Below, piece by piece: positions 1 to 25,867 of a stretch of 32,000 nucleotides of DNA (position 1 is the stretch's first letter; each line of letters begins with the position of its first letter). The DNA is taken from contig NC_021219.1 in assembly GCF_000392435.1 (NCBI RefSeq), positions 870,001-902,000 on the forward strand, read 5' to 3'. The position numbers and the translations under genes were made by a program. Under the pieces are notes generated by a model. The model did no database searches and had not been told where the DNA came from. It saw only the letters and a program-made list of their open reading frames with translations. The DNA is from Candidatus Saccharimonas aalborgensis (GTDB lineage: Bacteria; Patescibacteriota; Saccharimonadia; Saccharimonadales; Saccharimonadaceae).

Positions 1-669
1 ACCGGTCTCGGCATCGACCGACAGCGGGTCGTACGACTCGAAGACGGCATTGAGGACCGACTGCAAGTTCTTGGTCACCAGGGCATCCCTGATGTTCTCG
101 AACGTGCGGTAGTTCTGGAACAGCCCATCGACCGCCGTCTCCTTGGCCTGCCACTTGACGTACATGTTGGCGCAGGCCACGATTTGGTGCGCGATGCGCA
201 CCTGGATGCAGCCCTCGTTGAAGGCGGCTCCGGTGGGGCGGTTGTGCGTGTCGGTCTGGATGGCACCGTCCATCAGAGTGACATCCTGCCACGGTGCCTT
301 GAAGTGAGGGCCGTTGGACATGGAGCTGGTGGGCGCGCCGAGGGTGGTGACCACACCGATGTCCTTGGTGGGGACGATGACGAAGGTGGAGAAGAACAGC
401 ATGATCGCGGCGAGACCCGCGAGTGCCACACTGCCGTACCTCGTGACCTTGCCGGTGATGGCCTGGGTGCTGGTGTCCGGACGCTGGGGCTGCAATTCGT
501 GGAAGTAAAGCCCGCGGTTCTCTGCAGCGTCACGCCGCGAGCGCCAGTCGGCCAGCTCCTTCTTGTAATTGTCTTCGATGCCGCTGGCATCGTCGCTGTT
601 CTTTCGCGCATAGATGCGCGTGCCGATTGCGGCAAGGAGCAGCAACGCGACAACGATGGTTTCGATCAT
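1..669 (-). CDS. SPFH/band-7 (prohibitin-like) membrane protein, first 223 codons; continues past the left edge; GC-rich segment 1
   Basis: Hand translation of the minus strand from ATG (rc of 667-669) gives MIETIVVALLLLAAIGTRIYARKNSDD...KVTRYGSVALAGLAAIMLFFSTFVIVPTKDIGVVTTLGAPTSSMSNGPHFKAPWQDVTLMDGAIQTD... This is a TM segment followed by a typical SPFH-domain entry. There is no stop before position 1, which is why it is missing from the ORF track. Third codon positions are almost all G/C. Track ORFs 184..672(+) and 273..653(-) are other frames of the same GC-rich DNA. Confidence 0.6.
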   Translation of the reverse strand, partial: MIETIVVALLLLAAIGTRIYARKNSDDASGIEDNYKKELADWRSRRDAAENRGLYFHELQPQRPDTSTQAITGKVTRYGSVALAGLAAIMLFFSTFVIVPTKDIGVVTTLGAPTSSMSNGPHFKAPWQDVTLMDGAIQTDTHNRPTGAAFNEGCIQVRIAHQIVACANMYVKWQAKETAVDGLFQNYRTFENIRDALVTKNLQSVLNAVFESYDPLSVDAETG

Positions 670-3424: not shown

Positions 3425-3468
3425 GTGACCCCGCCCCCAGAGCGTCGAGGCTCCGGAGACGGGGTCAC
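3425..3468 (-). terminator. GC-rich hairpin overlapping the stop codon of the small GC-rich ORF
   Basis: GTGACCCCG (3425-3433) pairs with CGGGGTCAC (3460-3468), a 9-bp perfect stem. There is no U-tract. Confidence 0.35.
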
Positions 3469-3638
3469 TTGCGGCCGAGCAGGTGGTCGAACAGCGTGAT
3501 GATCGCCTCTGCGATCGACACGAGCGCCGACCAGATGCTCTTGATGATGTCCGCCGCCATCGCGGGATTCTTGATGACGACATACACCCCAAACGCGATA
3601 ACCAACCACTTGATGGCAACCACTGCGCCTTTGGGCAC
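3465..3638 (-). CDS. Small hydrophobic (membrane) protein, 57 aa, GC-rich segment 2
   Basis: In-frame GTG at 3638 lies 8 nt after GGGAGG. Product is VPKGAVVAIKWLVIAFGVYVVIKNPAMAADIIKSIWSALVSIAEAIITLFDHLLGRK. Third codon positions are strongly G/C. The track ORF 3465..3704 extends upstream through the promoter, which is unlikely. Confidence 0.5.
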   Translation of the reverse strand: MPKGAVVAIKWLVIAFGVYVVIKNPAMAADIIKSIWSALVSIAEAIITLFDHLLGRK

Positions 3639-3675
3639 CGCACTCACCTCCCTTCCAGGTGTAGGTGAAGTCTGT

Positions 3676-3718: not shown

Positions 3719-3828
3719 CTCACCCCCTCCCCACTCCAGACAACCGGCCCGCCGCTAACTAAATCAGCCTTCGCTCTTGGCGGGCCTTGGCCCATAAGGG
3801 CCAACTGTCTGTCGGAGGAGGGGGTGAG
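3719..3828 (+). repeat. Structured palindromic intergenic repeat, copy 1 (about 110 bp)
   Basis: CTCACCCCCTCCCCACTCCAGACAACCGGCCCGCC...GGCGGGCCTTGGCCCATAAGGGCCAACTGTCTGTCGGAGGAGGGGGTGAG. The terminal 12-nt arms are perfectly complementary, and there is an inner hairpin TTGGCCC-ATAA-GGGCCAA. It is nearly identical to 20960-21067 and to the reverse complement of 18915-19030. Confidence 0.85.
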
Positions 3829-3877: not shown

Positions 3878-4360
3878 TTACCGCGCGTGCTTTATTTGGG
3901 CGCTGCTCTCGCGGTCAGCTTGGCGCCGCTTGATTGTTTCGCGTTTGTCCCAACGCTTCTTGCCCTTGCCAAGGGCGATGACAACTTTGATATAGCGGCC
4001 CGAGGTCAGCATTTTTGTGGGGACGATCGTCATGCCAAGTTTTTTGCGAGCGGAGAATAGTTCAATTTGACGTTTGCTTGCCAGTAGTCGCCGGGGTCTC
4101 GTATCAACGCTGTGGGCACCGGGCTTACCTCTCTCGTTGAGCTTCAGACTAAAACTTGCGTTGTTGAGCCATAGGTCTCCGTCTTTGATCGTCACATAGG
4201 CGCCACGGAGTTGGATATGTCCATCACGAGCTGCCCGCACCTCTGGTCCTGTAAGTGATACGCCGGCGACGATATCATCGTCAAGCTCATAATCAAATCG
4301 GGCGCGACGATTGACGATCGGTGCTTTTGGGTGTGATACTGTGGCTTTTTTGGCGCTCAT
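3878..4360 (-). CDS. smpB: SsrA-binding protein
   Basis: Start chosen at MSAKKATVSHPKAPIVNRRARFDYEL... (ATG is rc of 4358-4360). NRRARFDY, GxEVKS-like TGPEVRA, and the basic C-terminal tail KKRWDKRETIKRR are typical SmpB features. Confidence 0.9.
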   Translation of the reverse strand: MSAKKATVSHPKAPIVNRRARFDYELDDDIVAGVSLTGPEVRAARDGHIQLRGAYVTIKDGDLWLNNASFSLKLNERGKPGAHSVDTRPRRLLASKRQIELFSARKKLGMTIVPTKMLTSGRYIKVVIALGKGKKRWDKRETIKRRQADRESSAQIKHAR

Positions 4361-4367
4361 ACTAGTG

Positions 4368-4376
4368 ATTATAGCA
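4368..4376 (-). promoter_or_regulatory. Extended -10 TGCTATAAT placed 7 nt before the smpB ATG (leaderless geometry)
   Basis: rc of 4368-4376 is TGCTATAAT. The gap 4361-4367 is followed by the ATG. Confidence 0.45.
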
Positions 4377-4405
4377 AAATACCGCAAGATGCAGGACAAA
4401 AGGTA

Positions 4406-4434
4406 TTGCTTTTTTGTAGTAATTATGCTATAAT
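4406..4434 (+). promoter_or_regulatory. Promoter TTGCTT-17-(TGC)TATAAT reading toward the 4731 ORF
   Basis: -35 at 4406-4411, 17-nt spacer ending in TGC, -10 at 4429-4434. Divergent from smpB. Confidence 0.45.
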
Positions 4435-4440
4435 GCTTTT

Positions 4441-4730
4441 TATCAGTGATGTGAGGTACAATATATCTCCCACTGCGAAGATTCCAAACGTGCTTCATGA
4501 CTCTTCTTGCGAGAGAAGCTGCCCTCTCCGATATGGTAGAACTAGCCAGCCGGCATCAAACGATTTGTTTGGTCTCGACTGGCTAGTCCCACCCGGATCC
4601 GGGACAAACCCTTTCGCTTCAAGAGTCGGAGGTTCCGGAACCTTTGACAACTCTCTCAGCGAAAGCAGCTTTACCTGCAGTACCCTCGCGACCACCGTGG
4701 CCGCGAGAACCTTCACGAAGGGAGCCAGCA
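4441..4730 (+). promoter_or_regulatory. Long (about 290 nt) multi-hairpin 5' leader or candidate structured RNA
   Basis: Five consecutive hairpins read by eye. They are 4503-4518 (CTTCT/AGAAG) and 4542-4586 (CTAGCCAG/CTGGCTAG with inner ATCAAAC/GTTTGGT). Then 4586-4605 (GTCCC/GGGAC), 4622-4654 (AGAG+TCGGAGGTT/AACCTTTGA+CTCT) and 4685-4707 (CTCGCG/CGCGAG) just before the SD. No known riboswitch motif was recognised. Confidence 0.3.
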
Positions 4731-5153
4731 ATGGCATTCGGAAACAAGGCCCGCATCGCCGCCCTCGAGGCCCGCAACGCCCAGCTCGAGCAGCTGTTCG
4801 GTCGCGCGGACGTCCGCCTGGACACCTACGGGCCCGAGCTCGCCGGCATCTTCGGTGACACCCCGACGGCTCACAGCGCCGGTCGCTGGACCTCGTCCAC
4901 GACCGTCCGCGACATCTACGGGATCAACGTGTCCAACGTGCCGGGCCGGGAGCAGGTCTCCTTCATGGCGATCAAGCACGCCGGCGCCGTCAAGCCGTTC
5001 GTCGTCTCGCTCCACCCGGGCGAGCACGTCGACTTCGACGCCAACGACTTCGCCGACCTCGAGGAGTGGGTCAACGCGGCCCGCACGGGCCAGACCCTCG
5101 ACCCCAACCGGCACGACCAGCGGGCGGCGAAGATGTTCAGCCTCGTCGGCTGA
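4731..5153 (+). CDS. Hypothetical protein, 140 aa, GC-rich segment 3
   Basis: ATG at 4731 lies 6 nt after GAAGGGAG. Product is MAFGNKARIAALEARNAQLEQLFGRADVRLDTYGPELAGIFGD... Hand-read codons end almost exclusively in G/C. The upstream part of track ORF 4644..5153 lacks an SD. Confidence 0.6.
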   Translation: MAFGNKARIAALEARNAQLEQLFGRADVRLDTYGPELAGIFGDTPTAHSAGRWTSSTTVRDIYGINVSNVPGREQVSFMAIKHAGAVKPFVVSLHPGEHVDFDANDFADLEEWVNAARTGQTLDPNRHDQRAAKMFSLVG

Positions 5154-5173
5154 CACATCTCGCTGAGAGAGCT

Positions 5174-5204
5174 GGTGGGGGCGCGCACGCTGTGCGCCCC
5201 CACC
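5174..5204 (+). terminator. GC-rich hairpin after the 4731 ORF
   Basis: GGTGGGGGCGC (5174-5184) pairs with GCGCCCCCACC (5194-5204), an 11-bp perfect stem. Confidence 0.5.
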
Positions 5205-5230
5205 ACTCTCGAACTAAAAAAATAGCAATA

Positions 5231-5261
5231 AAAAAAGAACGACCCACATGGGGTCTTTTTT
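5231..5261. terminator. Bidirectional intrinsic terminator between convergent GC-rich genes
   Basis: A7, then GACCC-ACATG-GGGTC, then T6. An A-run lies upstream and a T-run downstream, so it can work on both strands. It sits in AT-rich backbone-like DNA. Confidence 0.55.
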
Positions 5262-5299
5262 GTATAACAGAGAGAGTTGTTTGTAGCGATAGATTCCGC

Positions 5300-5342
5300 G
5301 TGAAGCGGGAGCCGGGGGCGTATCCCCCAGCTCCCGCTTCAC
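5300..5342 (-). terminator. Long GC-rich hairpin after the 231-aa ORF
   Basis: GTGAAGCGGGAGC (5300-5312) pairs with GCTCCCGCTTCAC (5330-5342), a 13-bp perfect stem, with inner GGGGG/CCCCC. It lies 14 nt past the stop at 5356. Confidence 0.5.
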
Positions 5343-5355
5343 ATGTGCGCTGGGG

Positions 5356-6051
5356 CTAGTCGAGCATGGTCTGGTAGGCCCGCGTGAGCTCGGCGTTGGC
5401 CAGCTCGACGAGCGCCTTGTAATCGGCGACGTCCCGCTCGTGGATGGCCACGAGCTTGGCATTCGCCTGCCGCTCGCGCGTCAGCGCCAGGCGGTCACGC
5501 CGCAGCTGCGCCGTCTGCTCGTCGAGCCAGCGCCCGACGTCCTCGGGTGTCTCGAGCCACTCGGGCAACTCGTCCCACTGGTACTTGCCACGCCGGAACA
5601 GCTTGCGCCACTCGCGCAGCTCGCGAGCGGTCCGGTTGAGCTCGTACTTGTGGTAGTTGAACTGGTGTCCGAGGTCGACGTTGCGTGCTTCGCGGGCGAG
5701 GCGTTCGAGCTCCCTGATGGCCTCCTGGTGCATCTGGAGCAGCTCGCCGAAAGCGACCGCCTGAGCGATCAGCTGGCGGTCGGCCTCGCTGCTGCCGTCG
5801 GCGGCATCGATGCGGATGCGCGCGATGCGGAGCAGCCCGTAGCGGAGCGCCACCTCATGGATGACGCTGCCAATGGCGGCAGCGCGGGGGAAGGCGGGGT
5901 TGAACGTCCCGTTGAAGCGGTAGTCGTTCAAGGCCTTGGCGATGAACCCATCGGGGCGGATCTCGCTGACGTACAGCGTGCTGTACATCGACATCGAGAT
6001 ACCACCGTCGTTCAGTTTGATGACGAACCGTGGCGGGAAGTTCCAACTCAT
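5356..6051 (-). CDS. Hypothetical protein, 231 aa, GC-rich segment 4
   Basis: ATG lies 8 nt after GGAGAGGAGG. The C-terminal half is rich in charged helical sequence (RELERLAREARN..., LRRDRLALTRERQ). No family was recognised by eye. Confidence 0.6.
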   Translation of the reverse strand: MSWNFPPRFVIKLNDGGISMSMYSTLYVSEIRPDGFIAKALNDYRFNGTFNPAFPRAAAIGSVIHEVALRYGLLRIARIRIDAADGSSEADRQLIAQAVAFGELLQMHQEAIRELERLAREARNVDLGHQFNYHKYELNRTARELREWRKLFRRGKYQWDELPEWLETPEDVGRWLDEQTAQLRRDRLALTRERQANAKLVAIHERDVADYKALVELANAELTRAYQTMLD

Positions 6052-6101
6052 GAAGTATGCCTCCTCTCCTGCTCGCAGTGACGGGGAATCCGTCAGGGGC
6101 T

Positions 6102-6158
6102 ACGAATCAGGAGCGGCAGCCATAGTCATAGACTCTATGACCACAACTCCTGATTCGT
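6102..6158 (-). promoter_or_regulatory. Nested inverted repeats in the 5' region of the 231-aa ORF
   Basis: Outer perfect 12-bp inverted repeat: ACGAATCAGGAG (6102-6113) with CTCCTGATTCGT (6147-6158). It encloses a perfect 8-1-8 palindrome GTCATAGA-C-TCTATGAC (6125-6141). Confidence 0.35.
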
Positions 6159-6174
6159 CTAAACTCTCTCTGTC

Positions 6175-6202
6175 AAAAAACAAGGGGCATGTGGTATGCC
6201 CT
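6175..6202 (-). terminator. Intrinsic terminator-like hairpin plus U-tract (minus strand)
   Basis: Minus-strand reading is AGGGCAT-ACCAC-ATGCCCC, then TTG, then TTTTTT. It lies downstream of the coiled-coil gene, but also downstream of the promoter-like site at 6239-6212. Confidence 0.45.
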
Positions 6203-6211
6203 CTCAAATAT

Positions 6212-6239
6212 ATTTTACAACAATAAGATTATTAGTCAA
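6212..6239 (-). promoter_or_regulatory. Promoter-like TTGACT-16-TAAAAT
   Basis: Minus strand: -35 is rc of 6234-6239, 16-nt spacer, -10 is rc of 6212-6217. Confidence 0.35.
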
Positions 6240-6256
6240 TATGCTGATCCCAGATA

Positions 6257-6592
6257 TCAGCCATCGTATTTCAGGTGTACCCCTGCTTGGTCGGCAAGCT
6301 GAAAGATCCAGCGCTCCAAGCGTGCTTGCTGGTGTGCCTGGACTTTCGTCTCCTGGATGAGTGTTTCGATGCGAGACATGTGGGTATCGAGGATGCCATA
6401 GATTCGGTTTACATCTGATTTCAGTTCTGAGACATCTGATTTAAGCTCAGCTACATCTGATTTAAGCTCAGCTACATCTGATTTAAGCTCAGCAATATTG
6501 TCTTCAATTTTATCAAAGCGCTTATCGACGCTATCGGCAAATTGCGAGAGTGTCGAGAGGATTTCTTCGTTGGTAACCTGAGCTTTGACCAT
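6257..6592 (-). CDS. Coiled-coil protein with AELKSDV heptad tandem repeats, 111 aa
   Basis: Start chosen at MVKAQVTNEEIL... (ATG is rc of 6590-6592). The upstream part of track ORF 6257..6883 runs through a GC-rich hairpin element. The protein contains AELKSDV x3 plus SELKSDV. Composition is backbone-like. Confidence 0.6.
   Translation of the reverse strand: MVKAQVTNEEILSTLSQFADSVDKRFDKIEDNIAELKSDVAELKSDVAELKSDVSELKSDVNRIYGILDTHMSRIETLIQETKVQAHQQARLERWIFQLADQAGVHLKYDG
6411..6494. repeat. 21-bp tandem repeat, 4 units (first unit degenerate), in frame within the coiled-coil gene
   Basis: ACATCTGATTTAAGCTCAGCT at 6432-6452 and 6453-6473, and again at 6474-6494 with the last base changed to A. 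The unit at 6411-6431 is divergent. Confidence 0.85.
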
Positions 6593-6663
6593 GTACCCAT
6601 TGTAGCATGTCTCGTCATATGCGTGCTCGGTGTTAGGATTTTGCGGGTTAATTGCACTCACTA

Positions 6664-6741
6664 CGGAAAGGCCGCCCCGACGGGGTGGCCTGAGTGCTCT
6701 ACACGAACTGATGTCCGGAGCGGCCTTTCCGTGGGGGCGGC
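6664..6741. other. GC-rich multi-hairpin element with mutually exclusive pairings
   Basis: CGGAAAGGCCGC (6664-6675) pairs perfectly with GCGGCCTTTCCG (6720-6731). GCCGCCCC (6671-6678) also pairs with GGGGCGGC (6734-6741). A local hairpin GGCCGCCCC-GAC-GGGGTGGCC (6670-6690) competes for the same bases. Confidence 0.4.
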
Positions 6742-6758
6742 GTGATGAAGTGCCTCTA

Positions 6759-7016
6759 CTACGCGTATTTTTTGCGTAGCGTGGGCCGGTTGCGAAACGC
6801 CAGCTCTTTGTCGAGGTGATACAGCAGGGCGAGTTCCAGGACAAGGTTGCTGACGCAGTCGAGGTACTCAGCTTTGGGATCACCGTAGCCCTCCCTCATG
6901 AGCTGGCGGAGCTTGGTTTCGAGCCCCGACATAGCTAGCATCGCATTCGCCCTACGCTCTAGGAGCTCATCCATGCTAAGGGCGGCGAAGCCAGTGGTGG
7001 TGCGAGCGTCGGTCAT
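6759..7016 (-). CDS. Hypothetical protein, 85 aa, GC-rich segment 5
   Basis: Start at MTDARTTTGFAALSMDELLERR... (ATG is rc of 7014-7016), 6 nt after AAGGGAG. The upstream part of track ORF 6759..7094 would run through the promoter. Confidence 0.5.
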   Translation of the reverse strand: MTDARTTTGFAALSMDELLERRANAMLAMSGLETKLRQLMREGYGDPKAEYLDCVSNLVLELALLYHLDKELAFRNRPTLRKKYA

Positions 7017-7039
7017 ACCGACTCCCTTCTCATGTAACG

Positions 7040-7056
7040 GTCTCTCGACGAGAGAC
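7040..7056 (-). promoter_or_regulatory. 8-1-8 perfect palindrome (5'-UTR hairpin or operator) GTCTCTCG-A-CGAGAGAC
   Basis: Read directly. It lies between the -10 at 7066-7071 and the SD of the 85-aa ORF. Confidence 0.35.
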
Positions 7057-7065
7057 GCTAAGGTA

Positions 7066-7094
7066 ATTTTACAATAATAAGCGAAAAGTATCAA
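7066..7094 (-). promoter_or_regulatory. Promoter TTGATA-17-TAAAAT for the 85-aa ORF
   Basis: Minus strand: -35 is rc of 7089-7094 and abuts the stop codon of the upstream gene. A 17-nt spacer follows, then -10 as rc of 7066-7071. Confidence 0.45.
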
Positions 7095-7931
7095 TTACCT
7101 AAGGATAATACCGCTGAATGATGATCGGCGAGCGGCAGCTTTTCGCTGTGCTTTCTCGTGTTTTTCGGCTTGATGCCATGCCTCATCGAGGGCATGGGTG
7201 TCGAACGGTTCGTAGCCAAGAGAGGCAAATAACGCAGCCTGTTGCCGTAATGTGTGTAGCGTAGCACGATTTGACGTCGTATGACCGTACGTCCAATTAT
7301 AACCCATTGAAAAAGAGGCGGCATCGAGTATTGCCTGAATAGTACCTCGACCGATATGCGCCTGCCGTAGTGCTCCTAGCTCGACCCCGACGGCGAGCGT
7401 GTCTTTGACCTCAGGATCCCGGCTTGAGCGACCCCTCACTGGCACATCAAAGGTCAACCACGGAGACGAAAAGGGTTGTACGTAATGACGGCTTCGGGAT
7501 GGCTCGCGGTGATGCAGGACGAGATTTGTCGGTTCCCCTGTGATAACACCCGTGTAGTGAGCCGCTCGCTCGGCGGGCAGATCGATAGCGGGAGCGCCAG
7601 GCTGTATTTCGGTAAATGTAGCGATAAGTTTATCGGCTTCGGGTTGCCCGTAGAGTCGAATGATTTCGGGATCGAGATCGCGCAGTTCGGCGGCGACAGT
7701 AGCAATCTCGACTAGTGAAGCATTTCCCTCCTCGATGAGCTGAGTGAGTCGCGCGGCGGCCTGCGAAAACGCAGCGATACGAGCCTCTTTGGCCTCATCG
7801 CGGACTGCAGCAGCTTGGCGTTCTAGCTCAGATGCGTACGTATCAGTTGCGGCGATTCTATTCGTGGCGTCCAGAATAGCCTTAAGTTCCTCAGGCATCA
7901 CAGATGTTTGTAGTCGTTCTCGCGTTGACAT
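7095..7931 (-). CDS. Hypothetical protein, 278 aa; helical Ala/Glu-rich N-terminal half, possible GNAT-like C-terminal part
   Basis: GAGGAGGTG SD lies 4 nt before the ATG. The C-terminal stretch VGVELGALRQAHIGRGTIQAILDAA...RQQAALFASLGYEP resembles GNAT motif A (R/Q-x-x-G-x-G/A ... A-x-x-L-Y/F-x-x-x-G-F/Y). This is a by-eye resemblance only. Confidence 0.55.
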   Translation of the reverse strand: MSTRERLQTSVMPEELKAILDATNRIAATDTYASELERQAAAVRDEAKEARIAAFSQAAARLTQLIEEGNASLVEIATVAAELRDLDPEIIRLYGQPEADKLIATFTEIQPGAPAIDLPAERAAHYTGVITGEPTNLVLHHREPSRSRHYVQPFSSPWLTFDVPVRGRSSRDPEVKDTLAVGVELGALRQAHIGRGTIQAILDAASFSMGYNWTYGHTTSNRATLHTLRQQAALFASLGYEPFDTHALDEAWHQAEKHEKAQRKAAARRSSFSGIILR

Positions 7932-7980: not shown

Positions 7981-9579
7981 TTAGACGGTGTCTGATTTGC
8001 GGATATACTCTGCGATGAGGTCCATGATCTCTTGCTGGGTGATAGGCGGCATACTAATGGCAGCCACCTCTTCACCAGTGATTTCGGCGCGCTTGGTAGC
8101 CGCGACATACTCGCGGAGGCGACGGCGACGTAGCTCCTGGAGTATTTCATCGAAGTCGGCACCGACGAGTCCATAACTACTTGCCGCCAGTTCAGGCACA
8201 TTGATGGAATGATCAAAATCGAGCGTCGGTAACCCTGGGTTAAGCTCGCGATTATTGACAGCATCCGCGGCAAGTTTGCCTAGCATAAGTGCCAGAATGC
8301 GACTGCGGTCATACTCGCTTGGGAGACCAATCTCAATTTTCTCAAACCGACCGGTACGGAAGAGCGCCTTATCGACTTTATCCTCGTGATTTGTCGCCGC
8401 CACGACAATAATATTGTGATGGTTTGCAAGGAGGTCGAGAATATGTGACTTTAGGCGGTTGACTGTATCGGCGCGCTCTCCGTGAATACGTGAAGCATCT
8501 GCGCCAAGACTATCAACTTCGTCCATGAAAAGAACGATTTTTGCACCATCAACCTCTGCTTTTTTCTTGATCTCAGCGATCTTCTCGTCGAGGTTTCGAG
8601 CTGATTTGCCAACCCACATCTCAATGATCTCAGAAACATGAAATTGTATGAATTCGGCATCAATTTCGTGCGAAAACGCTTCGGCGAGGGTAGTTTTGCC
8701 TGTCCCGGGAGGTCCGTACAGAAAGATACCTTGCCCTTTCTTGAGCCCGATATTTTTTGCAATTGTGGGGTATTCGCTGAGTAATGCGAGGTCGAGTAAT
8801 TTTCGCTTGGCGATCTCGTAGCCGGCAATATCATCAAAGGAAAGCGGTTTTTCGGTCCGCAGTTCCTGCTCGGGGACTGCGATAAGTGGTTCTGGCGGAA
8901 TAATCGTGCAGTAGAGCTTTTTGGTGTAATCGGCACTGTACATCCCTACGGCGTTGTCGCGGACATGTGCCCAGATTTGCATGAAGCGCTTGACATCATC
9001 TAAGCGTTCTTCGGGCGTATCCTCGATAAAGAATATTGATTCAATTTCTTCTGCAGATGGCTCAACACCGATCTCCGCAAGGTAATCTGAATACGATAAC
9101 GTCGAGAGTGTCGCACCCTGGTATTTGGTTGTTTGGTTGCTTGTACGGGTTTTCATCTGCTCATAAAGATCAATCCGTACATAGCGATTTGGTGAAAGCT
9201 CTGCATACCTGGTTGAGCGGCTTCTGGGGTGTTGGATAGTTTGGCACCCTAAACCGGCGTAGAGGTACTGGTCGAGTACGCGGACAAATTTATCAATCCA
9301 AGCTGGTCCCTTCAATTCATCCCTATCAACATCAAAATAAATTCGGCCATTGATCTGAAAATCCGAATCAGGAGACTCGGTCGTGCATTCAATTTGCGCA
9401 CCCCTCACTGGACTATCTATCTCGACGTTCCCGTGGCGAAAGAGCGTGTGCGAGATTTCCCTCGGCGTTCGCGTACACATGACGAGGTAGTCTTCATCCG
9501 GGCGCATCACCATTTCTGTGAAGCGAGATGAGAACCGAGTACCTCTTTCGGCTGCCGAATCTCTACGTTGCTCTGCCAT
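7981..9579 (-). CDS. Classical-clade AAA+ ATPase with a ~270-aa N-terminal region of unknown function
   Basis: Walker A is GPPGTGKT and Walker B is IVLFMDEVD. The second region of homology is ATNHEDKVDKALFRTGRFEKIEIGLP. Start is taken at MAEQRRDS (ATG is rc of 9577-9579), preceded by TAGTAT 8 nt upstream. The track start at 9615 is an alternative. Confidence 0.85.
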   Translation of the reverse strand: MAEQRRDSAAERGTRFSSRFTEMVMRPDEDYLVMCTRTPREISHTLFRHGNVEIDSPVRGAQIECTTESPDSDFQINGRIYFDVDRDELKGPAWIDKFVRVLDQYLYAGLGCQTIQHPRSRSTRYAELSPNRYVRIDLYEQMKTRTSNQTTKYQGATLSTLSYSDYLAEIGVEPSAEEIESIFFIEDTPEERLDDVKRFMQIWAHVRDNAVGMYSADYTKKLYCTIIPPEPLIAVPEQELRTEKPLSFDDIAGYEIAKRKLLDLALLSEYPTIAKNIGLKKGQGIFLYGPPGTGKTTLAEAFSHEIDAEFIQFHVSEIIEMWVGKSARNLDEKIAEIKKKAEVDGAKIVLFMDEVDSLGADASRIHGERADTVNRLKSHILDLLANHHNIIVVAATNHEDKVDKALFRTGRFEKIEIGLPSEYDRSRILALMLGKLAADAVNNRELNPGLPTLDFDHSINVPELAASSYGLVGADFDEILQELRRRRLREYVAATKRAEITGEEVAAISMPPITQQEIMDLIAEYIRKSDTV

Positions 9580-9907: not shown

Positions 9908-10000
9908 GTCTATTTTCTCCCCCTCTATATGGTGTTCAGTATAACAAATTCAACACTAGAGAGCAACATTTTTGTGCTGGTCACATCCGCATACCACTCA

Positions 10001-10009
10001 TGCTATACT
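10001..10009 (+). promoter_or_regulatory. Extended -10 TGCTATACT placed 6 nt before the ATG at 10016 (leaderless geometry)
   Basis: Same 9-mer and same spacing as upstream of pyrH. Confidence 0.4.
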
Positions 10010-10015
10010 GGAATT

Positions 10016-11926
10016 ATGTCAAGACATATGAACCGCGAGCAAGGCTTTGCGTTGCCAACCGTCGTGATTGTATCGGTCGTTCTTTTTGTGGTAATGCTGG
10101 CGGCGATTTCGTCTGTATCGAGTATTCGTGGCGCACTGTTGGCGCAGTATTATCAGCAACTCGCTCGTGAGGCGGCGGAATCCGGAGCTGAGTTTGCTGC
10201 AAATTGCCTCGATGCTAACTCAAATATCGTGACATGGACCGTAGCAAAACCTCTCAAACCAAATACAGACTGCACCGGAACAGAAGTTGTTGCTTGTACC
10301 TCCATGCCCCATCCTGCAGGGTGCGATGTCAATAGTAGCACAAATATGTATTCAACTTTTTCGGTTGCACCTCCATCGTCAGCGAATCTATTTGACTATA
10401 TTGTCACTGTTACCGCTACGGTAAATCTTGTCAGATCTGGTACGACAACGGTATGGAATAATTATTCGATAGCGATGCGCTACGATCCGGTAAAAAAAAG
10501 TCAGCCCGCATTTCCTAGTGTTCCAACTTTTGGTTCCTCAGGCGTAATATCGGCTTTTAGCGATGGTTACCTCTGGGGCTGGGGGTGTAACGGGTCAAGC
10601 CAGTTTGGTGATGGCACAACGACAAACAAATTGATACCGGGGAGGCTTATCGCCATGAGCGATGTCGTAGACATTGTTTCTGCTGCTATTAACTCGACAT
10701 CGGGCACAGTAACCGCTCTCAAATCTAATGGCTCAGTCTGGGCATGGGGCTACAATGCCGATGGGCAGATCGGCAACGGTACCACTACGACACAATCAAC
10801 TCCGACTCAAGTTATTTCAAGTGGAGTTGTCAAGATATACCCTGTCAAAAGTGCGTCGGGTGTTGTGCACGAAACGGTGTATGCTCTCAAATCTGACGGT
10901 TCGCTATGGGCATGGGGGTATAACGGAAGTGGTCAGGTTGGCAACAATTCCACCACCAATCAGCTCACGCCTGTGCAGATCATCGCTAGCGGGGTAAGCA
11001 AAGTGTATGCGACAGGATATAATGTCTATGTCATCAAATCTGACGGTTCTCTGTGGGCATGGGGAAGTGGGACCAATGGACCGGTTGGCAACAATTCCAC
11101 CACCAATCAGCTCACGCCTGTGCAGATCATCGCTAGCGGGGTAAGCAGCGTCATCACTACATGGTTTGGGGCATACGCAATCAAATCTGACGGTTCGCTA
11201 TGGGCATGGGGGTATAACGGTGCCGGTCAGGTTGGTAACAATTCCACCACCAATCGACTTACACCCGTACAAGTTATAGCCAGTGGGGTATCACAGATGA
11301 TCGCGAGCGCTTCATCTCCCTACCCGGCTCGACTTGTTATCAAAACTGACGGCTCACTCTGGGCATGGGGAAGTAATACATACGGTCAGGTCGGCAACAA
11401 CTCTACCACCAATCAGCTCACTCCCGTACAGATCATGGCGAGCGGAGTGGTTAAAGCATCGGCAAATGACCTGACCACGTTTGCAATCAAATCTGACGGT
11501 TCGCTATGGGCATGGGGGTATAACACAACGTATGGGACGGTCGGCAACAACTCTACCACCAATCGGCTCACTCCCGTACAGATCATGGCGAGCGGAGTGA
11601 CTGCCGCAGGGGCAGATTCCTATAGCGCATACGCTCTCAAATCTGACGGCTCACTCTGGATATGGGGAAATAATAGCAATGGTGTAGTCGGTAATGGCAC
11701 ATTGACAACCCAACTCGTTCCGTATCAGGCAATCAGTAGTGGCGTTACTCAAGTTAATTTTTCGTCGACACTCGTGTATGCCCTAAAATCAGATGGAACT
11801 GCATGGGCGATTAGCAATAATAACACAGCGTGTAATTTGAATGGCACCAATCCTTCCACCTATAATCCGAGAATTCCAGTACAAATTGCGATTCCTCCGA
11901 TCATAATAAAAAGCCGTGCGTATTAA
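10016..11926 (+). CDS. PilX-like (pseudopilin-type) N-terminal anchor fused to an RCC1-repeat beta-propeller protein
   Basis: MSRHMNREQGFALPTVVIVSVVLFVVMLAAISSV is a PilX-type hydrophobic N-terminus. About 9-10 repeats of the form SDGSLWAWGYNGxGQVGNNSTTNQLTPVQI follow (RCC1/ATS1-type WGxNxxGQLG pattern). Start is taken at 10016 rather than the track's 9929. Confidence 0.8.
   Translation: MSRHMNREQGFALPTVVIVSVVLFVVMLAAISSVSSIRGALLAQYYQQLAREAAESGAEFAANCLDANSNIVTWTVAKPLKPNTDCTGTEVVACTSMPHPAGCDVNSSTNMYSTFSVAPPSSANLFDYIVTVTATVNLVRSGTTTVWNNYSIAMRYDPVKKSQPAFPSVPTFGSSGVISAFSDGYLWGWGCNGSSQFGDGTTTNKLIPGRLIAMSDVVDIVSAAINSTSGTVTALKSNGSVWAWGYNADGQIGNGTTTTQSTPTQVISSGVVKIYPVKSASGVVHETVYALKSDGSLWAWGYNGSGQVGNNSTTNQLTPVQIIASGVSKVYATGYNVYVIKSDGSLWAWGSGTNGPVGNNSTTNQLTPVQIIASGVSSVITTWFGAYAIKSDGSLWAWGYNGAGQVGNNSTTNRLTPVQVIASGVSQMIASASSPYPARLVIKTDGSLWAWGSNTYGQVGNNSTTNQLTPVQIMASGVVKASANDLTTFAIKSDGSLWAWGYNTTYGTVGNNSTTNRLTPVQIMASGVTAAGADSYSAYALKSDGSLWIWGNNSNGVVGNGTLTTQLVPYQAISSGVTQVNFSSTLVYALKSDGTAWAISNNNTACNLNGTNPSTYNPRIPVQIAIPPIIIKSRAY
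10936..11147 (+). repeat. Intragenic near-identical DNA repeats within the RCC1 gene
   Basis: A 65-bp stretch GGTTGGCAACAATTCCACCACCAATCAGCTCACGCCTGTGCAGATCATCGCTAGCGGGGTAAGCA is identical at 10936-11000 and 11083-11147. Several further ~35-bp identical blocks (AATCTGACGGTTCGCTATGGGCATGGGGGTATAAC) also occur. Confidence 0.85.
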
Positions 11927-11931
11927 TACGA

Positions 11932-12147
11932 TTATTTGGATGTCAGATACCACCCACCGTCATGAGGTGATTGGTAGACTCGGAGCAAGACAGTAGGCTC
12001 GTACAGTATCCGTTGACACATGGCTGCTTCGGCTGCTTTTTTTGTTGGGTAGCGTATTTTTGTCCGCTCTTTTACTGGCAGCTTACGGAGGATGTGCTTG
12101 GGGGTACGATTACGACGCGGCATGTTGTAAATAGTATAGCGCATCAC
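11932..12147 (-). CDS. Small basic hypothetical protein (63-71 aa)
   Basis: ORF only. C-terminus is ...YQSPHDGGWYLTSK. The start is uncertain: 12147/12144, or M9 at 12123, which lies 9 nt after a TATACT box. Confidence 0.4.
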   Translation of the reverse strand: MMRYTIYNMPRRNRTPKHILRKLPVKERTKIRYPTKKAAEAAMCQRILYEPTVLLRVYQSPHDGGWYLTSK

Positions 12148-18914: not shown

Positions 18915-19030
18915 GCCCCAAGACCCTCCTCCGACAGACAGTTGGCCCTGATGGGCCAAGGCCCGCCAAGAGCGAAGGCTGATTCAGTTAGCGGCGGGCC
19001 GGTTGTCTGGAGTGGGGAGGGTGTTGGGGC
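18915..19030 (-). repeat. Structured palindromic intergenic repeat, copy 2 (inverted orientation)
   Basis: The reverse complement matches copies 1 and 3 through the core. The terminal arms are changed on both sides to GCCCCAAGACCCTCC / GGAGGGTGTTGGGGC, which are still complementary apart from one mismatch. It starts 12 nt after the atpD stop. Confidence 0.85.
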
Positions 19031-19046
19031 TTCAGATGAAAGTTCT

Positions 19047-19075
19047 TTGACTTTATACAACAATAGTGATATAAT
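19047..19075 (+). promoter_or_regulatory. Consensus-type promoter TTGACT-17-TATAAT
   Basis: -35 at 19047-19052, exact 17-nt spacer, -10 at 19070-19075. Confidence 0.5.
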
Positions 19076-19139
19076 ATAAGAGACGGCCTGTTTAATCGAA
19101 CGAGCCGACCAACAAGCCTCATGTAAGGAGGTGGTTCGC

Positions 19140-19466
19140 GTGCTCAACCACTGGTTGGCGCGTGTGCTCCCAGGAGGGCGCGAGCCCGGAGATCCCTGGT
19201 GGGTCTTCCGGGACGCAGACGGTCAGGACAACGACTGGTGGCCCCAGTTGGTGTCGCTGGGGTGCTACCCCCTGGTCTTCTTCGTTCTCTTCGGGTGGTG
19301 GGGGGTGCTGCTCGGCCTGGTGGCCGCAGTCGGCACGCTCCTCTACTGGGGAGCACTTCTGAGCGTCGCGGTGCTGGTGATCTACGTCCTGCTGTCCCTG
19401 TTTCTGGGGTGGCTGTGGGCACTGGTCATCGTCGCACTGCTCGTTTGGTGGTTCATCTACCGCTAG
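19140..19466 (+). CDS. Trp-rich multi-TM membrane protein, 108 aa, GC-rich segment 6
   Basis: GTG at 19140 lies 8 nt after AAGGAGG. Product is VLNHWLARVLPGGREPGDPWWVFRDADGQDNDWWPQLVSLGCYPLVFFVLFGWWGVLLGLVAAVGTLLYWGALLSVAVLVIYVLLSLFLGWLWALVIVALLVWWFIYR. Other long ORFs here (19119..19526-, 19144..19422- and others) are alternative frames of GC-rich DNA. Confidence 0.55.
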   Translation: MLNHWLARVLPGGREPGDPWWVFRDADGQDNDWWPQLVSLGCYPLVFFVLFGWWGVLLGLVAAVGTLLYWGALLSVAVLVIYVLLSLFLGWLWALVIVALLVWWFIYR

Positions 19467-19496
19467 ACGAGCAGTGTCGCTGTGTACGCTCACTAG

Positions 19497-19533
19497 GGTG
19501 AGAGTGGCAGCCGATCCCGGCTCCACTCTCGCC
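19497..19533 (+). terminator. GC-rich hairpin after the membrane ORF
   Basis: GGTGAGAGTGG (19497-19507) pairs with CCACTCTCGCC (19523-19533): 11 bp including one G-T pair. Confidence 0.45.
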
Positions 19534-19560
19534 CGCGCAGTACAAGATTTCCTCTTAGCA

Positions 19561-19584
19561 CTCTCGCATCGGGCGAGAGTTTTT
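19561..19584 (+). terminator. Intrinsic terminator directly upstream of atpC
   Basis: CTCTCGC-ATCGG-GCGAGAG followed by TTTTT. Confidence 0.55.
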
Positions 19585-19592
19585 GGTATGAT
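19584..19592 (+). promoter_or_regulatory. Extended -10 TGGTATGAT placed 9 nt before the atpC ATG
   Basis: Read directly. It overlaps the end of the terminator's T-run. Confidence 0.4.
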
Positions 19593-19601
19593 AGAACTAG
19601 T

Positions 19602-20959: not shown

Positions 20960-21067
20960 CTCACCCCCTCCCCACTCCAGACAACCGGCCCGCCGCAAAC
21001 TGACTAGCCTTCGCCTTGGCGGGCCTTGGCCCATCAGGGCCAACTGTCTGTCGGAGGAGGGGGTGAG
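20960..21067 (+). repeat. Structured palindromic intergenic repeat, copy 3
   Basis: Arms and stems are the same as copy 1. Differences are confined to the central loop and to one base in the inner hairpin loop (ATCA versus ATAA). It lies between convergent genes (stops at 20928 and 21075). Confidence 0.85.
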
Positions 21068-22188: not shown

Positions 22189-22284
22189 TGGAGCCCCATA
22201 CAGGAATCGAACCTGTGCGTGTGCCGGTGTTGCTGGCATTCCACGACTTGGCAAGCCGCAGCTCTACCACTGAGCTAATGAGGC
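22189..22284 (-). tRNA. tRNA-Gly(GCC)-like gene with encoded CCA and an abnormal 26-nt variable region
   Basis: Hand-folded reverse complement. Acceptor GCCTCAT / ATGGGGC (one G-U pair) and D arm GCTC-AGTGGTA-GAGC. Anticodon arm GCGGC-TTGCCAA-GTCGT (two G-U pairs, anticodon GCC). Variable region GGAATGCCAGCAACACCGGCACACGC (can form TGCCAG/CCGGCA). T arm ACAGG-TTCGATT-CCTGT, discriminator T, then CCA. Confidence 0.7.
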
Positions 22285-25500: not shown

Positions 25501-25867
25501 GGTGCATGGTTACCTCGTCAGCAGGACGAAATGCCGCACCATGATAAAAATACTGATTGTTTTGGTTGATCACTTCAGTCCCAAAGCTGTGGAAGGTATG
25601 GATAGCTACCCTATAGGCATCTGGACCAATAATTCCTGCTAATCGTTCACGCATGGCGGCTGCACCACTATCGGTAAAGGTGAGGCAGAGGATGTTTTCG
25701 GGCAATGTATCAGTTGAGCGGAGGATATTTGCGGCACGCATACCGAGGAGCTCGGTCTTTCCTGTGCCGGGTCCGGCTACCACGAGTAACGGGCCATCAA
25801 TGGCATCAACAGCCTGGCGTTGAGCGGCATTAAGTTGGCGATAGCGTGCGTCGAAGGCCGTTGTCAA
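22577..25867 (-). CDS. UvrD/PcrA/AddA-type superfamily-1 helicase fused to a C-terminal PD-(D/E)XK (RecB-like) nuclease
   Basis: 1096 aa. VVAGPGTGKT (motif I), IMVDEFQDTN (II), VGDDDQAIYSFQGA (III), TENYRS (IV), AHKAKGLEFDTVFIV (V) and AMTRACRTLIISY (VI). The C-terminus has GSLDLVDI...VVTDYKTGK. TTG start overlaps the upstream stop (TTGA). Confidence 0.85.
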   Translation of the reverse strand: MTTAFDARYRQLNAAQRQAVDAIDGPLLVVAGPGTGKTELLGMRAANILRSTDTLPENILCLTFTDSGAAAMRERLAGIIGPDAYRVAIHTFHSFGTEVINQNNQYFYHGAAFRPADEVTMHQVLSEIFDELDYTNPLASKNNGEHTHLKDTMSTISELKRAGLSSDELLAIINANEEVLDSIERDLTEIFSNKPSTTMLSLLVPLAERVAALAVPTLPSGITPLANVLALSMAHAFDEAVATNKTTPITAWRNQWLEKNTEGEFVFKDRKRHAKLRSVAHIYYVYLSRMEQAGLYDYDDMILGVVHGMETQPDLKYNLQEKYHYIMVDEFQDTNLAQLRILFDLTDTSANEGNPNVMAVGDDDQAIYSFQGADVNNIHRFRNQYPSHQSIVLTENYRSGAAILQHAREVIVQGTGRLETTMEISKQLEAQKKSESTVILQQLPSVIEERAWIAQSIKERIKNGATPASIAVLARRHQDLVSLLPYLYHEDIAVNYERRDNVLDIEAVRALELLARITVSLHDSEFDVVDSLMPQLLGHPMCKPNPEAIWRLGLTCYRDRITWLEAMQNSERYQPLAQWLISLSANLSHTTLEASIDILTGIPTEEESSSHDYSSPLFAYYFSDERLKDNPDAYLTMLEALRTLRHALRQYRPDQDLTLQDFLSFIELHRQMKTPLVSLRRPSEHAQDAITLLSAHKAKGLEFDTVFIVSAIDSIWGERVRSRTRLIGYPENLPLAPAGNTYDERLRLFFVAMTRACRTLIISYSRHDEQERDSLIARFLVGSSLTPTVSVPQTTLAQLTDHAELAWHDTITKHPSITMKQLLTPQLEAYKLSSTHLNAFIDITRGGPQAFLLHNLLRFPQAKSAAACYGTAIHAVLQRAHTHLAATGDRRPVEDILGDFVTELQNQRLPAAEFALYSKKGVDSLTRFLDAKYSTFTATQKTELNFSTQHVQLGDARLTGSLDLVDIADNSIVVTDYKTGKPSRTWNGNSEYQKIKLHKYKQQLMFYELLVSKSRDYSKYAFTKGVLQFIEPDQSGVIHDLSLTFTEEELAEFSDLIAAVWHCITALELPDTSSFEPTLKGIIEFEHYLIDNFAKK

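Follow-up and report, generated by a model that had tools for sequence, protein, structure and literature searches.

Why does a genome of about 1 Mb change composition six times within 2.7 kb, and what are the short GC-rich genes found there? The question is raised by positions 4406-7094 of a 32,000-nucleotide stretch of Candidatus Saccharimonas aalborgensis (contig NC_021219.1, positions 870,001 to 902,000; the whole stretch is referred to as the window). Three GC-rich open reading frames (ORFs) of 140, 231 and 85 amino acids (aa), here p140, p231 and p85, alternate at this locus with genes of backbone composition and lie next to an operon that encodes an AAA+ ATPase. An initial annotation had picked out the locus as the most accessory-looking part of the window and as a place to look for host-interaction or anti-phage genes. 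We think it probable that the locus is a replacement-type flexible islet, composed of self-contained, moron-like units with laterally acquired orphan genes that are exchanged by recombination.

The mosaic is sharp. The window as a whole has a GC content of 51%, and the GC profile in 100-nt windows shifts level six times between 4400 and 7150, which bears out the earlier count of at least six changes of composition:

4350-4500: GC 0.34-0.35
4700-5200: GC 0.66-0.75
5200-5300: GC 0.39
5300-5950: GC 0.64-0.74
6150-6300: GC 0.35-0.40
6600-7050: GC 0.56-0.63
7000-7150: GC 0.41-0.45

The genes in and beside the locus are the following:

4731-5153, plus strand: p140, 140 aa; GC 0.69, with 0.67/0.46/0.95 at the three codon positions
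5356-6051, minus strand: p231, a 231-aa orphan convergent to p140; GC 0.66
6257-6592, minus strand: coiled-coil gene, 111 aa; GC 0.46, third-position GC 0.48, with four AELKSDV heptads and four 21-nt tandem repeats
6759-7016, minus strand: p85, 85 aa; GC 0.59, a predicted two-helix hairpin with a G(Y/F)G(D/E)P turn
7095-7931, minus strand: p278, a 278-aa orphan of backbone composition, downstream of the AAA+ gene
7981-9579, minus strand: classic-clade AAA+ ATPase, 532 aa, given for context (PF00004, E = 2.7e-32)

GC at third codon positions (GC3) is 0.95 in p140, 0.91 in p231 and 0.74 in p85, compared with 0.45-0.60 in 15 backbone neighbours and 0.64 in one further neighbour; it stays at 0.48-0.60 across smpB, the coiled-coil gene, p278, the AAA+ gene, the glutaredoxin gene and the RCC1-repeat gene. 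A scan of the window for high-GC3 ORFs (at least 60 aa, GC3 of at least 0.68, and GC3 > GC1 > GC2, the latter two being first and second codon positions) returned extended ORFs with GC3 of at least 0.85 at 4644-5153 and 5356-6051 in the locus and at 19131-19466 elsewhere. GC3 reaches at least 0.74 in seven of the 24 genes in the 20 kb around the locus. The period-3 pattern of GC1, GC2 and GC3 in the three GC-rich ORFs matches the called frames and no others, which marks the ORFs as coding sequences and not GC-rich RNA genes. Each is followed by a stable GC-rich stem-loop without a U-tract (5166-5211, 5300-5342 and 6658-6743; z from -4 to -8), the three types being unrelated in sequence, and a consensus scan found seven promoter-like sites against 2.1 ± 1.3 expected. 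The ORFs, hairpins and promoter-like sites that the initial annotation had listed were all recovered at or near the places it had assigned to them.

Abrupt GC switches of this kind might also betray an assembly chimera or high-GC contamination. The stretch is 100% identical to the closed genome CP065015.1 (about 684.46-716.46 kb). p231 is encoded identically on 22 public contigs, which include the closed genomes CP065015.1 and CP064959.1 and independent metagenomes, and its junctions are 99-100% identical on 10 of the 22, among them both closed genomes and contig DCNO01000025.1 of a metagenome-assembled genome (MAG). A chimera is excluded because the same junctions recur in two closed genomes of about 1 Mb, on a MAG contig of 65 kb and on over 15 independent contigs from metagenomes; haplotype variants, moreover, share the same backbone flanks. 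We regard the chance of an artefact as negligible. CP064959.1 is 99.15% identical to the window over the locus and has p278, p85 and the coiled-coil, glycosyltransferase, SPFH and PGA_cap genes all split or frame-shifted, which suggests long-read indel errors and not real pseudogenes.

Loci of relatives were retrieved from public contigs (numbered with an L) and are treated here as haplotypes. The same interval occurs in at least seven arrangements, in which p98, p135 and p141 denote alleles by their length:

Window type: p278, p85, coiled-coil gene, p231, p140
L027 and L028: p278, a 228-aa membrane protein, p85, coiled-coil gene, p231, and in L028 also p140 (69%); the L027 contig ends within p231
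L011, L012, L014 and L015: p278, a 226-aa membrane protein, p98, coiled-coil gene, p231 (79%), p135
L018: as the preceding four, with a p141 allele (68%)
L021 and L022: membrane protein, coiled-coil gene and a p140 allele (59%), with no p85 and no p231
L023 and L025: coiled-coil gene and a p140 allele (59%), with no p231; both are short contigs that end before the p85 slot
L039 and L040: p231, then directly a truncated leader, with no p140

Since each of the GC-rich ORFs is missing from one or other of these arrangements, the ORFs are individually dispensable and do not travel together. The accessory character claimed for the locus is strongly supported, as the GC-rich ORFs are missing or swapped while the core flanks are near-identical. 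Co-occurrence, which the initial annotation had proposed as a check, does extend beyond this genome; it is confined to this species-level lineage and is not obligatory. The coiled-coil gene is present in every haplotype and is under purifying selection (nonsynonymous divergence, dN, 0.008-0.016; synonymous divergence, dS, 0.13-0.39).

Divergence between haplotypes starts and stops near the ORF ends, because the non-coding flanks (the leader of p140, the 5' untranslated region, 5'UTR, of p231 and the intergenic terminators) are 94-100% identical. Within the ORFs, dN is 0.24-0.82 and dS 0.45-0.67 for p140 (dN/dS 0.5-1.2), 0.46 and 0.85 for p85 against its 98-aa form, and 0.10-0.13 and 0.17-0.29 for p231 (dN/dS about 0.45-0.6). 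p278 diverges in patches (dN 0.07, dS 0.30), with variable blocks at about 7204-7380 and 7744-7860, and smpB shows a dN of 0. The AAA+ gene is nearly invariant (dS 0.003-0.006) between neighbours that are not (p278, dS 0.3; the glutaredoxin gene, up to 0.2), suggesting a recent gene-specific sweep or very strong constraint.

The p140 slot holds at least four allele classes, at 100, 68, 59 and 30% identity, and the 30% class is still homologous (pairwise E = 2e-9). The 140- and 141-aa alleles differ in length by one whole codon only, and similarity to the 135-aa allele ends after codon 6 (MAFGNK) and resumes 7 nt past the stop codon. GC3 is 0.94-0.95 among the alleles (0.90 in the 135-aa form) despite a dS of about 0.5, and third-position differences comprise 33-41 exchanges between G and C compared with 8-9 between strong and weak bases. 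The reverse is seen in p231, p278 and the coiled-coil gene, where strong-weak changes dominate. Because GC3 was kept and G-C exchanges dominate, the p140 alleles diverged under GC pressure and not in a 51%-GC genome; by this pattern of substitution they look as if they had diverged in an external high-GC pool, or under unusual selection, before entering the slot.

Could native genes have become GC-rich in place, by GC-biased gene conversion or local hypermutation? That the region is clearly a recombination mosaic speaks for such a process. Yet the coiled-coil gene, which lies in the same hot spot and has a dS of up to 0.39, keeps a GC3 of 0.48-0.53, the UTRs stay AT-rich, GC3 jumps by 0.4-0.45 within a few bases of the ORF ends, and neither the repeat pairs nor, among neighbouring genes, the reverse transcriptase of a diversity-generating retroelement was found. 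GC-biased conversion at a hot spot fails to explain p140, since the coiled-coil gene and the UTRs of the same mosaic are not GC-rich, and we hold compositional change in place to be very improbable.

The p140 slot is built from the following elements:

4406-4434, plus strand: putative promoter of the leader RNA and p140; TTGCTT (4406-4411), a 17-nt spacer and TGcTATAAT (TATAAT at 4429-4434)
4449-4655, plus strand: structured RNA domain, the 5' part of what had been described as a 290-nt leader; a 5' hairpin and then a long hairpin of about 170 nt
4656-5210, plus strand: p140 cassette; a 75-nt 5'UTR with the Shine-Dalgarno sequence AAGGGAG, the ORF and a GC-rich stem-loop
5166-5211, plus strand: the GC-rich stem-loop after p140; -41 kcal/mol, z = -6.9
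5229-5263, both strands: AT-rich bidirectional intrinsic terminator of backbone type, between the convergent p140 and p231 cassettes; scan match 5241-5255, with T-runs on each side

The promoter is plausible, with a perfect extended -10 element and a -35 element that matches at three of six positions, so that the consensus scan missed it. In L021 and L028 positions 4406-4434 are swapped for other sequence and the downstream leader is kept. The leader (about 285-290 nt, 4443-4730) folds with z = -5.0 against shuffles. Its domain at 4449-4655 is 97-100% identical in all haplotypes, including the two with a wholly different upstream flank. Its 3' part (4656-4730) carries an 8-nt insertion and 1-nt differences; as such frame-breaking changes are tolerated, the open frame that runs through the whole leader is non-coding. 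Covariation analysis gave one compensatory pair among 92, in sequences too alike to be informative. In L039 and L040, two independent samples, segment 4656-5210 is absent, and the junction, gacaACTCTCgaac, falls between the copies of a 6-bp direct repeat, ACTCTC, that bounds the cassette at 4650-4655 and 5205-5210. The first 205 nt of the leader are retained in both and run straight into the AT-rich terminator, giving a compact predicted RNA of about 260 nt (z = -6.3).

No Rfam family matched the leader at the gathering threshold or at E <= 10, and ARAGORN found no transfer-messenger RNA (tmRNA) in the window or L039. An island targeted to a tmRNA gene beside smpB was also considered and set aside, with no tmRNA in the window or L039 by ARAGORN or Rfam and no integrase. 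On our reading the leader is an RNA gene in its own right, structured and divergent from smpB, and the p140 cassette would borrow its promoter; as a candidate new structured RNA it occurs both with and without a downstream ORF. In the consensus fold, CUCUCU of the repeat pairs with AGGGAG of the p140 Shine-Dalgarno sequence, a possible means of translational control. The stem-loop after p140 shows a compensatory change from G-C to A-T between haplotypes. The AlphaFold2 model of p140, from a shallow alignment, has helices that flank a four-strand sheet at low confidence (predicted local distance difference test, pLDDT, 50.1).

The p231 unit adds two elements on the minus strand:

5300-5342, minus strand: GC-rich stem-loop of 19 bp directly 3' of the p231 stop codon, without a U-tract; -47.8 kcal/mol, z = -7.7
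6052-6239, minus strand: p231 promoter-like site and 5'UTR; TTGACT-16-TAAAAT at 6239-6212, 10 of 12 matches

Two hairpins lie in the 5'UTR, one of them terminator-like with a U-run (6201-6176) and the other at 6102-6158. The promoter and 5'UTR region is 96% identical between haplotypes, compared with only 79% protein identity for the ORF. p231 is absent in L021, L022, L023 and L025; the deletion spans about 5323-6198, with breakpoints that lie in the loops of two hairpins and have GC in common, and its left breakpoint in L021 is the loop of the 5300-5342 stem-loop. Among alleles the C-terminal 55 residues are nearly invariant. The C-terminal half of the protein is helical and coiled-coil; in the AlphaFold2 model (shallow alignment, mean pLDDT 58.9) helices 128-200 alone are confident, and Foldseek against the PDB returned generic coiled coils only (E >= 0.1). 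By its pattern of substitution p231 looks like a foreign gene in decay at its present site. The stem-loop with its 5' flank (CCGCACAUGUGAAGC; 5290-5345, minus strand; L039:1889-1938) scores 22.8 bits against the Rfam family Ms_IGR-8, whose gathering threshold is 44. Ms_IGR-8 is a Mycobacterium intergenic small RNA family, and the resemblance may be a weak hint of an actinobacterial-style terminator.

Two elements belong to p85:

6658-6743, minus strand: 86-nt GC-rich hairpin element downstream of p85; -49.9 kcal/mol, z = -4.2
7017-7094, minus strand: p85 promoter and 5'UTR; TTGATA-17-TAAAAT at 7094-7066, 10 of 12 matches, with the hairpin GTCTCTCGtcGAGAGAC

The -35 element of this promoter directly abuts the stop codon of p278 (7095-7097). 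p85 is allelic with p98 (50% identical, GC3 0.79), and both are absent in L021. The 86-nt hairpin is present once in the window type and twice, at 97-99% identity, in haplotypes with the membrane-protein cassette, one copy after each GC-rich ORF. This extra cassette, which encodes the 226-228-aa protein and brings the second hairpin copy, is flanked by ATCAAT, the complement of TTGAT in the -35 box. In these haplotypes p98 has a hairpin copy on either side, so that recombination of one copy with the other would delete it, as its absence from L021 illustrates. The membrane protein has 15 hydrophobic windows and aligns across the whole CPBP/Rce1-like model PF02517 at E = 0.71 (10.6 bits, cut-off 22.4), with EELIYR, FRNAH and HILYD readable against the CPBP motifs EExxxR, FxxxH and HxxxD/N.

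p85 and p98 resemble WXG100/ESAT-6-like proteins, as these are generally described, in their length of about 85-100 aa, two predicted helices, an aromatic-glycine turn, G(Y/F)G(D/E)P, and a high-GC codon usage as in Actinobacteria. They differ in having no sequence match in NCBIfam or the PDB and no type VII secretion genes nearby. Membership in WXG100 (PF06013) was rejected for p85: there is no Pfam match at E <= 0.1, and the turn reads G-Y-G-D-P or G-F-G-E-P with no W-x-G.

Two short motifs recur around the GC-rich ORFs. TACAAYAATAR, a motif defined after two of its three copies had been seen, occurs three times in 32 kb against 0.02 expected; the copies sit in promoter-like spacers at p231, at p85 and, in reversed orientation relative to the gene, at an ORF inserted in the atp genes (described below). 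It could represent a common operator or a common origin. AACTCTCTCWG has seven matches in the window against 0.89 expected, four of which form inverted pairs that flank p140 (4649/5163) and p231 (5268/6162).

Such inverted pairs are one reason to ask whether the locus is a site-specific capture platform, integron-like or transposon-borne, on whose hairpins or inverted repeats a recombinase acts. The ORF-plus-hairpin layout, the doubling of the 86-nt hairpin where a further cassette is present and the short direct repeats at two junctions would all suit this. However, neither an integrase nor a transposase, reverse transcriptase or recombinase was found among the window ORFs scanned or the called genes within 10 kb on either side (Pfam), the three kinds of hairpin are unrelated, and the cassettes, which occur in either orientation, bring their own promoters. 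The AACTCTCTCWG repeats were rejected as transposon ends, as the observed p231 deletion does not stop at them; they may instead be anti-Shine-Dalgarno or stem-base sequences. Because repeats at the junctions vary in length as well as sequence (ACTCTC, ATCAAT, GC) and no recombinase gene is nearby, illegitimate or microhomology recombination is indicated rather than a site-specific process, and a dedicated capture platform is quite improbable.

The initial annotation had recognised no family for the five locus proteins, and Pfam, PHROGs, PADLOC and NCBIfam assigned none either: p140, p231, p85 and p278 had no match, and the 111-aa protein had sub-threshold coiled-coil matches only. PDB sequence profiles gave nothing significant for p231 and p140 (E >= 0.03). 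A word-indexed search of 5.8 billion proteins returned five relatives of p231 (79-93% identical), four of p140 (the identical protein, alleles at 67% and 59%, and one frameshifted fragment) and four of p278 (78-94%), all from the same locus. An exhaustive hidden Markov model (HMM) search with the p231 family against 1.84 billion representatives recovered its own cluster only. For p85, the family libraries and the phage and plasmid tblastn searches held no match, and no broad protein-database search was made. No relatives outside S. aalborgensis were found in tblastn searches of 50,697 phage records and 72,556 plasmid records or in IMG/VR scans, and the GTDB genome scan with the membrane-protein cassette and the metagenome scans were negative or found only S. 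aalborgensis. Among the searches made, relatives of the cassettes are confined to one species-level lineage. None of the five locus proteins has a hydrophobic segment; they look small and soluble, with p231, p85 and the 111-aa protein mainly helical or coiled-coil.

The idea that these genes form one anti-phage or effector system with the AAA+ operon fared poorly. In its favour are the adjacency of the genes, a hypervariability typical of defence islands and the likeness of the AAA+ domain to the IetA/IteA anti-phage ATPases. The latter is generic: the AAA+ protein matches IetA models through its AAA domain (PADLOC E = 1.6e-24) with no IetS partner, it scores 75.8 bits against the NCBIfam IteA model (cut-off 510), and FtsH, PAN and CDC48 score equally well or better. 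No family matched its N-terminal 250 residues, and no partner protease is present. None of the 5,027 defence-system models of PADLOC-DB 2.0 matches the locus genes (the coiled-coil protein gave coiled-coil noise only), so that the defence scan proposed earlier returned nothing, and neither p140, p231, p85 and p278 nor the cassettes of relatives had a PADLOC match. The cassettes are present or absent independently, each has its own promoter- and terminator-like signals, p140 is convergent with p231, and turnover of the neighbouring genes contrasts with an unchanging AAA+ gene. Since the cassette proteins vary independently they are not parts of one machine, and we give little credence to a single multi-gene system that joins the AAA+ gene, p278 and the GC-rich genes.

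How, then, would the islet have formed? In each unit a sigma-70-like promoter and a structured 5'UTR would precede the ORF and a GC-rich stem-loop would follow it, and the units would be set between the conserved backbone genes, namely smpB, the coiled-coil gene and the AAA+/p278 pair. p140, p231 and p85 would have been acquired laterally from a high-GC pool, most plausibly Actinobacteria or their mobile elements. Cassettes would be gained and lost by illegitimate recombination at microhomologies of 2-7 bp, or between duplicated hairpin elements, and strains would trade alleles through homologous recombination, for which the conserved non-coding flanks would provide the anchors. For its expression p140 would rely on a conserved structured RNA gene that was already in place, divergent from smpB, and would use the promoter and 5' domain of that gene. 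Such a route is biologically available to Saccharibacteria, which show natural competence and integration of DNA through homologous recombination and, where cultivated, have Actinobacteria as their known hosts (PMC10633639). We infer that high-GC DNA associated with the hosts is taken up and then passed between strains.

As to a donor, the composition and the U-less stem-loops are consistent with an actinobacterial origin, not proof of it. A neighbouring SPFH/Band-7 gene (GC3 0.85) and the 166-aa gene beside it beyond the window start (GC3 0.83) lie at window 1-669, minus strand, and L001:15383-17129. The SPFH protein matches only four of the 72,556 plasmid records, all actinobacterial (Tsukamurella, two of Arthrobacter, and Mycobacterium), with identities of 32-40%. 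Joint transfer of these two genes was rejected, as the gene beside the Tsukamurella homologue is unrelated.

The main rival is that the GC-rich segments are inert foreign DNA in flux, i.e. high-GC fragments that are open by chance, are lost at random and do nothing. Each segment is indeed dispensable in some strain, the searches gave neither homologues nor domains, long open frames run along both strands of the GC-rich blocks, the dN/dS ratios are 0.5-1.2, and structure prediction is poor. Yet the period-3 GC pattern fits the called frames, with GC2 at about 0.41-0.48 in all alleles, and a single whole codon separates the 140- and 141-aa alleles. Each ORF, moreover, is equipped with a promoter-like site, a good Shine-Dalgarno sequence and a stem-loop in which a compensatory change has preserved pairing, and p231 combines a dN/dS of about 0.45-0.6 with its nearly invariant C-terminus. 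Reduced genomes of about 1 Mb are also expected to purge useless DNA. We judge inert DNA unlikely.

Several points nevertheless weigh against a flexible islet of functional units. Intact ORFs are a weak sign of selection, as DNA of 70% GC seldom contains stop codons, and long open frames occur on the antisense strand of the GC-rich blocks as well. dN/dS values of 0.5-1.2 are equally compatible with relaxed constraint. The promoters and terminators are predictions from consensus matches only, and the terminator-like hairpin right after the predicted p231 start site argues against simple constitutive expression. The structure predictions that had been proposed, with pLDDT as low as given above and nothing significant from Foldseek or the PDB, offer no functional clue. 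The junctions were read without an outgroup, so that each event may be an insertion or a deletion. No donor for the cassettes emerged from the exhaustive search with p231, which found its own cluster only, or from the word-indexed search that alone was made for p140, and the actinobacterial link comes from the neighbouring SPFH gene and a plasmid-only database and not from the cassettes themselves.

A bolder variant can be put forward tentatively. Fixed expression slots, each with a conserved promoter, RNA leader and terminator, would be refilled from a high-GC pool, making the locus an integrase-free system of capture and diversification in the candidate phyla radiation (CPR) whose products would be strain-specific host-interaction or immunity factors. 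The p140 slot, set on a conserved and hitherto undescribed RNA gene of about 200 nt beside smpB, would be its clearest case, with at least four allele classes whose divergence under GC pressure would have taken place outside the Saccharimonas genome. We consider this variant rather unlikely to hold.

The general kind of structure, a hypervariable genomic island with atypical GC, is already known, and several known systems invite comparison with the flexible islet that we favour. Phage morons are reportedly extra genes with their own promoter and terminator (work attributed to Juhala et al. 2000 and Hendrix et al. 2000). The likeness lies in a single extra gene between conserved genes, its own promoter and terminator, odd composition and patchy presence; on predicted signals, the units here are independent transcription units of unlike composition (10/12 promoters, z -4 to -8, GC3 0.74-0.95). 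Unlike morons they have no PHROG, INPHARED or IMG/VR relatives, their flanks are cellular (smpB, pyrH, atp, glutaredoxin) and allele replacement proceeds one slot at a time. Replacement-type flexible genomic islands, or hypervariable "metagenomic islands" in bacterial populations, are said to have been described by Rodriguez-Valera and colleagues. Conserved flanks, divergent gene versions within one species, atypical composition, orphans and a mosaic structure are shared with these; the slots here are single-gene and 0.4-0.9 kb long, whereas those islands are multi-gene clusters such as O-antigen loci, and the products are small soluble proteins instead of enzymes for surface polysaccharides.

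Homology-facilitated illegitimate recombination in naturally transformable bacteria was reportedly described by de Vries and Wackernagel 2002 and Prudhomme et al. 2002. Joints with 2-7 bp of microhomology beside a conserved anchor, in a competent group (PMC10633639), recall that process, which is deduced here from junction sequences alone. Integron cassettes are also short single-ORF units followed by an imperfect palindrome, and here too an extra unit arrives with an extra copy of the element. Differences from integrons are the lack of IntI (window ORFs and 10 kb on either side) and of a shared attC-like core, hairpins of unrelated families, and cassettes with their own promoter-like sites, p140 lying opposite to p231 and p85. 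A diversity-generating retroelement target was considered and rejected: there is no repeat pair longer than 42 nt in 4300-7200 and no reverse transcriptase among neighbouring genes, and the substitutions are G-C or strong-weak exchanges and not adenine-specific. What we regard as new is the single-gene slot structure, the proposed use of a conserved RNA as expression platform and the signs of GC pressure in the divergence of the p140 alleles.

Other features of the window deserve mention in their own right. A fourth high-GC cassette (19040-19600) interrupts the atp genes between atpD and atpC. Its promoter is a perfect TTGACT-17-TATAAT and its ribosome-binding site AAGGAGG, its stem-loops contain CTCTC/GAGAG, and its ORF (19131-19466) encodes a tryptophan-rich membrane protein of 108-111 aa (GC3 0.85); the cassette is identical in CP065015, CP065017 and two MAGs. 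The SPFH slot holds other genes in L013 and L036 (207 + 595 aa, or 207 + 467 aa). Between the glycosyltransferase genes and smpB lies a small membrane-protein ORF:

3465-3647, minus strand: 57-60 aa, GC3 0.84

About 80 nt upstream of it is one copy of a 98-nt GC-rich palindromic repeat, which occurs three times at 96-98% identity:

18924-19021, plus strand
3725-3822, minus strand
20966-21061, minus strand

These copies sit just past the ends of genes (atpD, smpB and the convergent CDCA/Dus pair). They have the look of a terminator of the repetitive extragenic palindrome (REP) or miniature inverted-repeat transposable element (MITE) type, with no Rfam match at the gathering threshold.

Four further features complete the picture of the neighbourhood:

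9929-11926, plus strand: RCC1-repeat gene, 665 aa, present in some strains and absent in others
22189-22284, minus strand: tRNA-Gly(GCC), 96 nt, with an insertion of about 23 nt between the anticodon arm and the T arm
25864-28613, minus strand: tandem paralogues of 462 and 454 aa with Tim44-like and DUF3137 domains
29156-29842: type IV pilin-like gene (N_methyl motif), near the Tim44-like/DUF3137 pair

L027 and L028 have no RCC1-repeat gene here, and the homologue of a small ORF (11932-12147) comes straight after their glutaredoxin gene. The insertion in tRNA-Gly(GCC) may represent an intron, or else a variable region of unusual length.

For S. aalborgensis, the locus is a compact, sharply bounded hot spot of strain-level variation in a 1-Mb genome. 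Extreme turnover beside a near-invariant AAA+ gene suggests frequency-dependent selection, for example through strain-specific interaction with hosts, phages or competitors, and a possible defence or host-interaction role of the cassettes has indirect support in their hypervariability and in a composition like that of high-GC donors. Saccharibacteria live attached to other bacteria, and to our knowledge little is known about what sets their strain-level host use or phage resistance. The locus is a natural candidate for strain-specific interaction determinants, and one that is testable now that Saccharibacteria can be transformed. The seven high-GC3 genes among 24 also bear on how much DNA epibionts take from high-GC organisms. 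Even if the cassettes were inert, the locus would still record foreign DNA entering and leaving a reduced genome.

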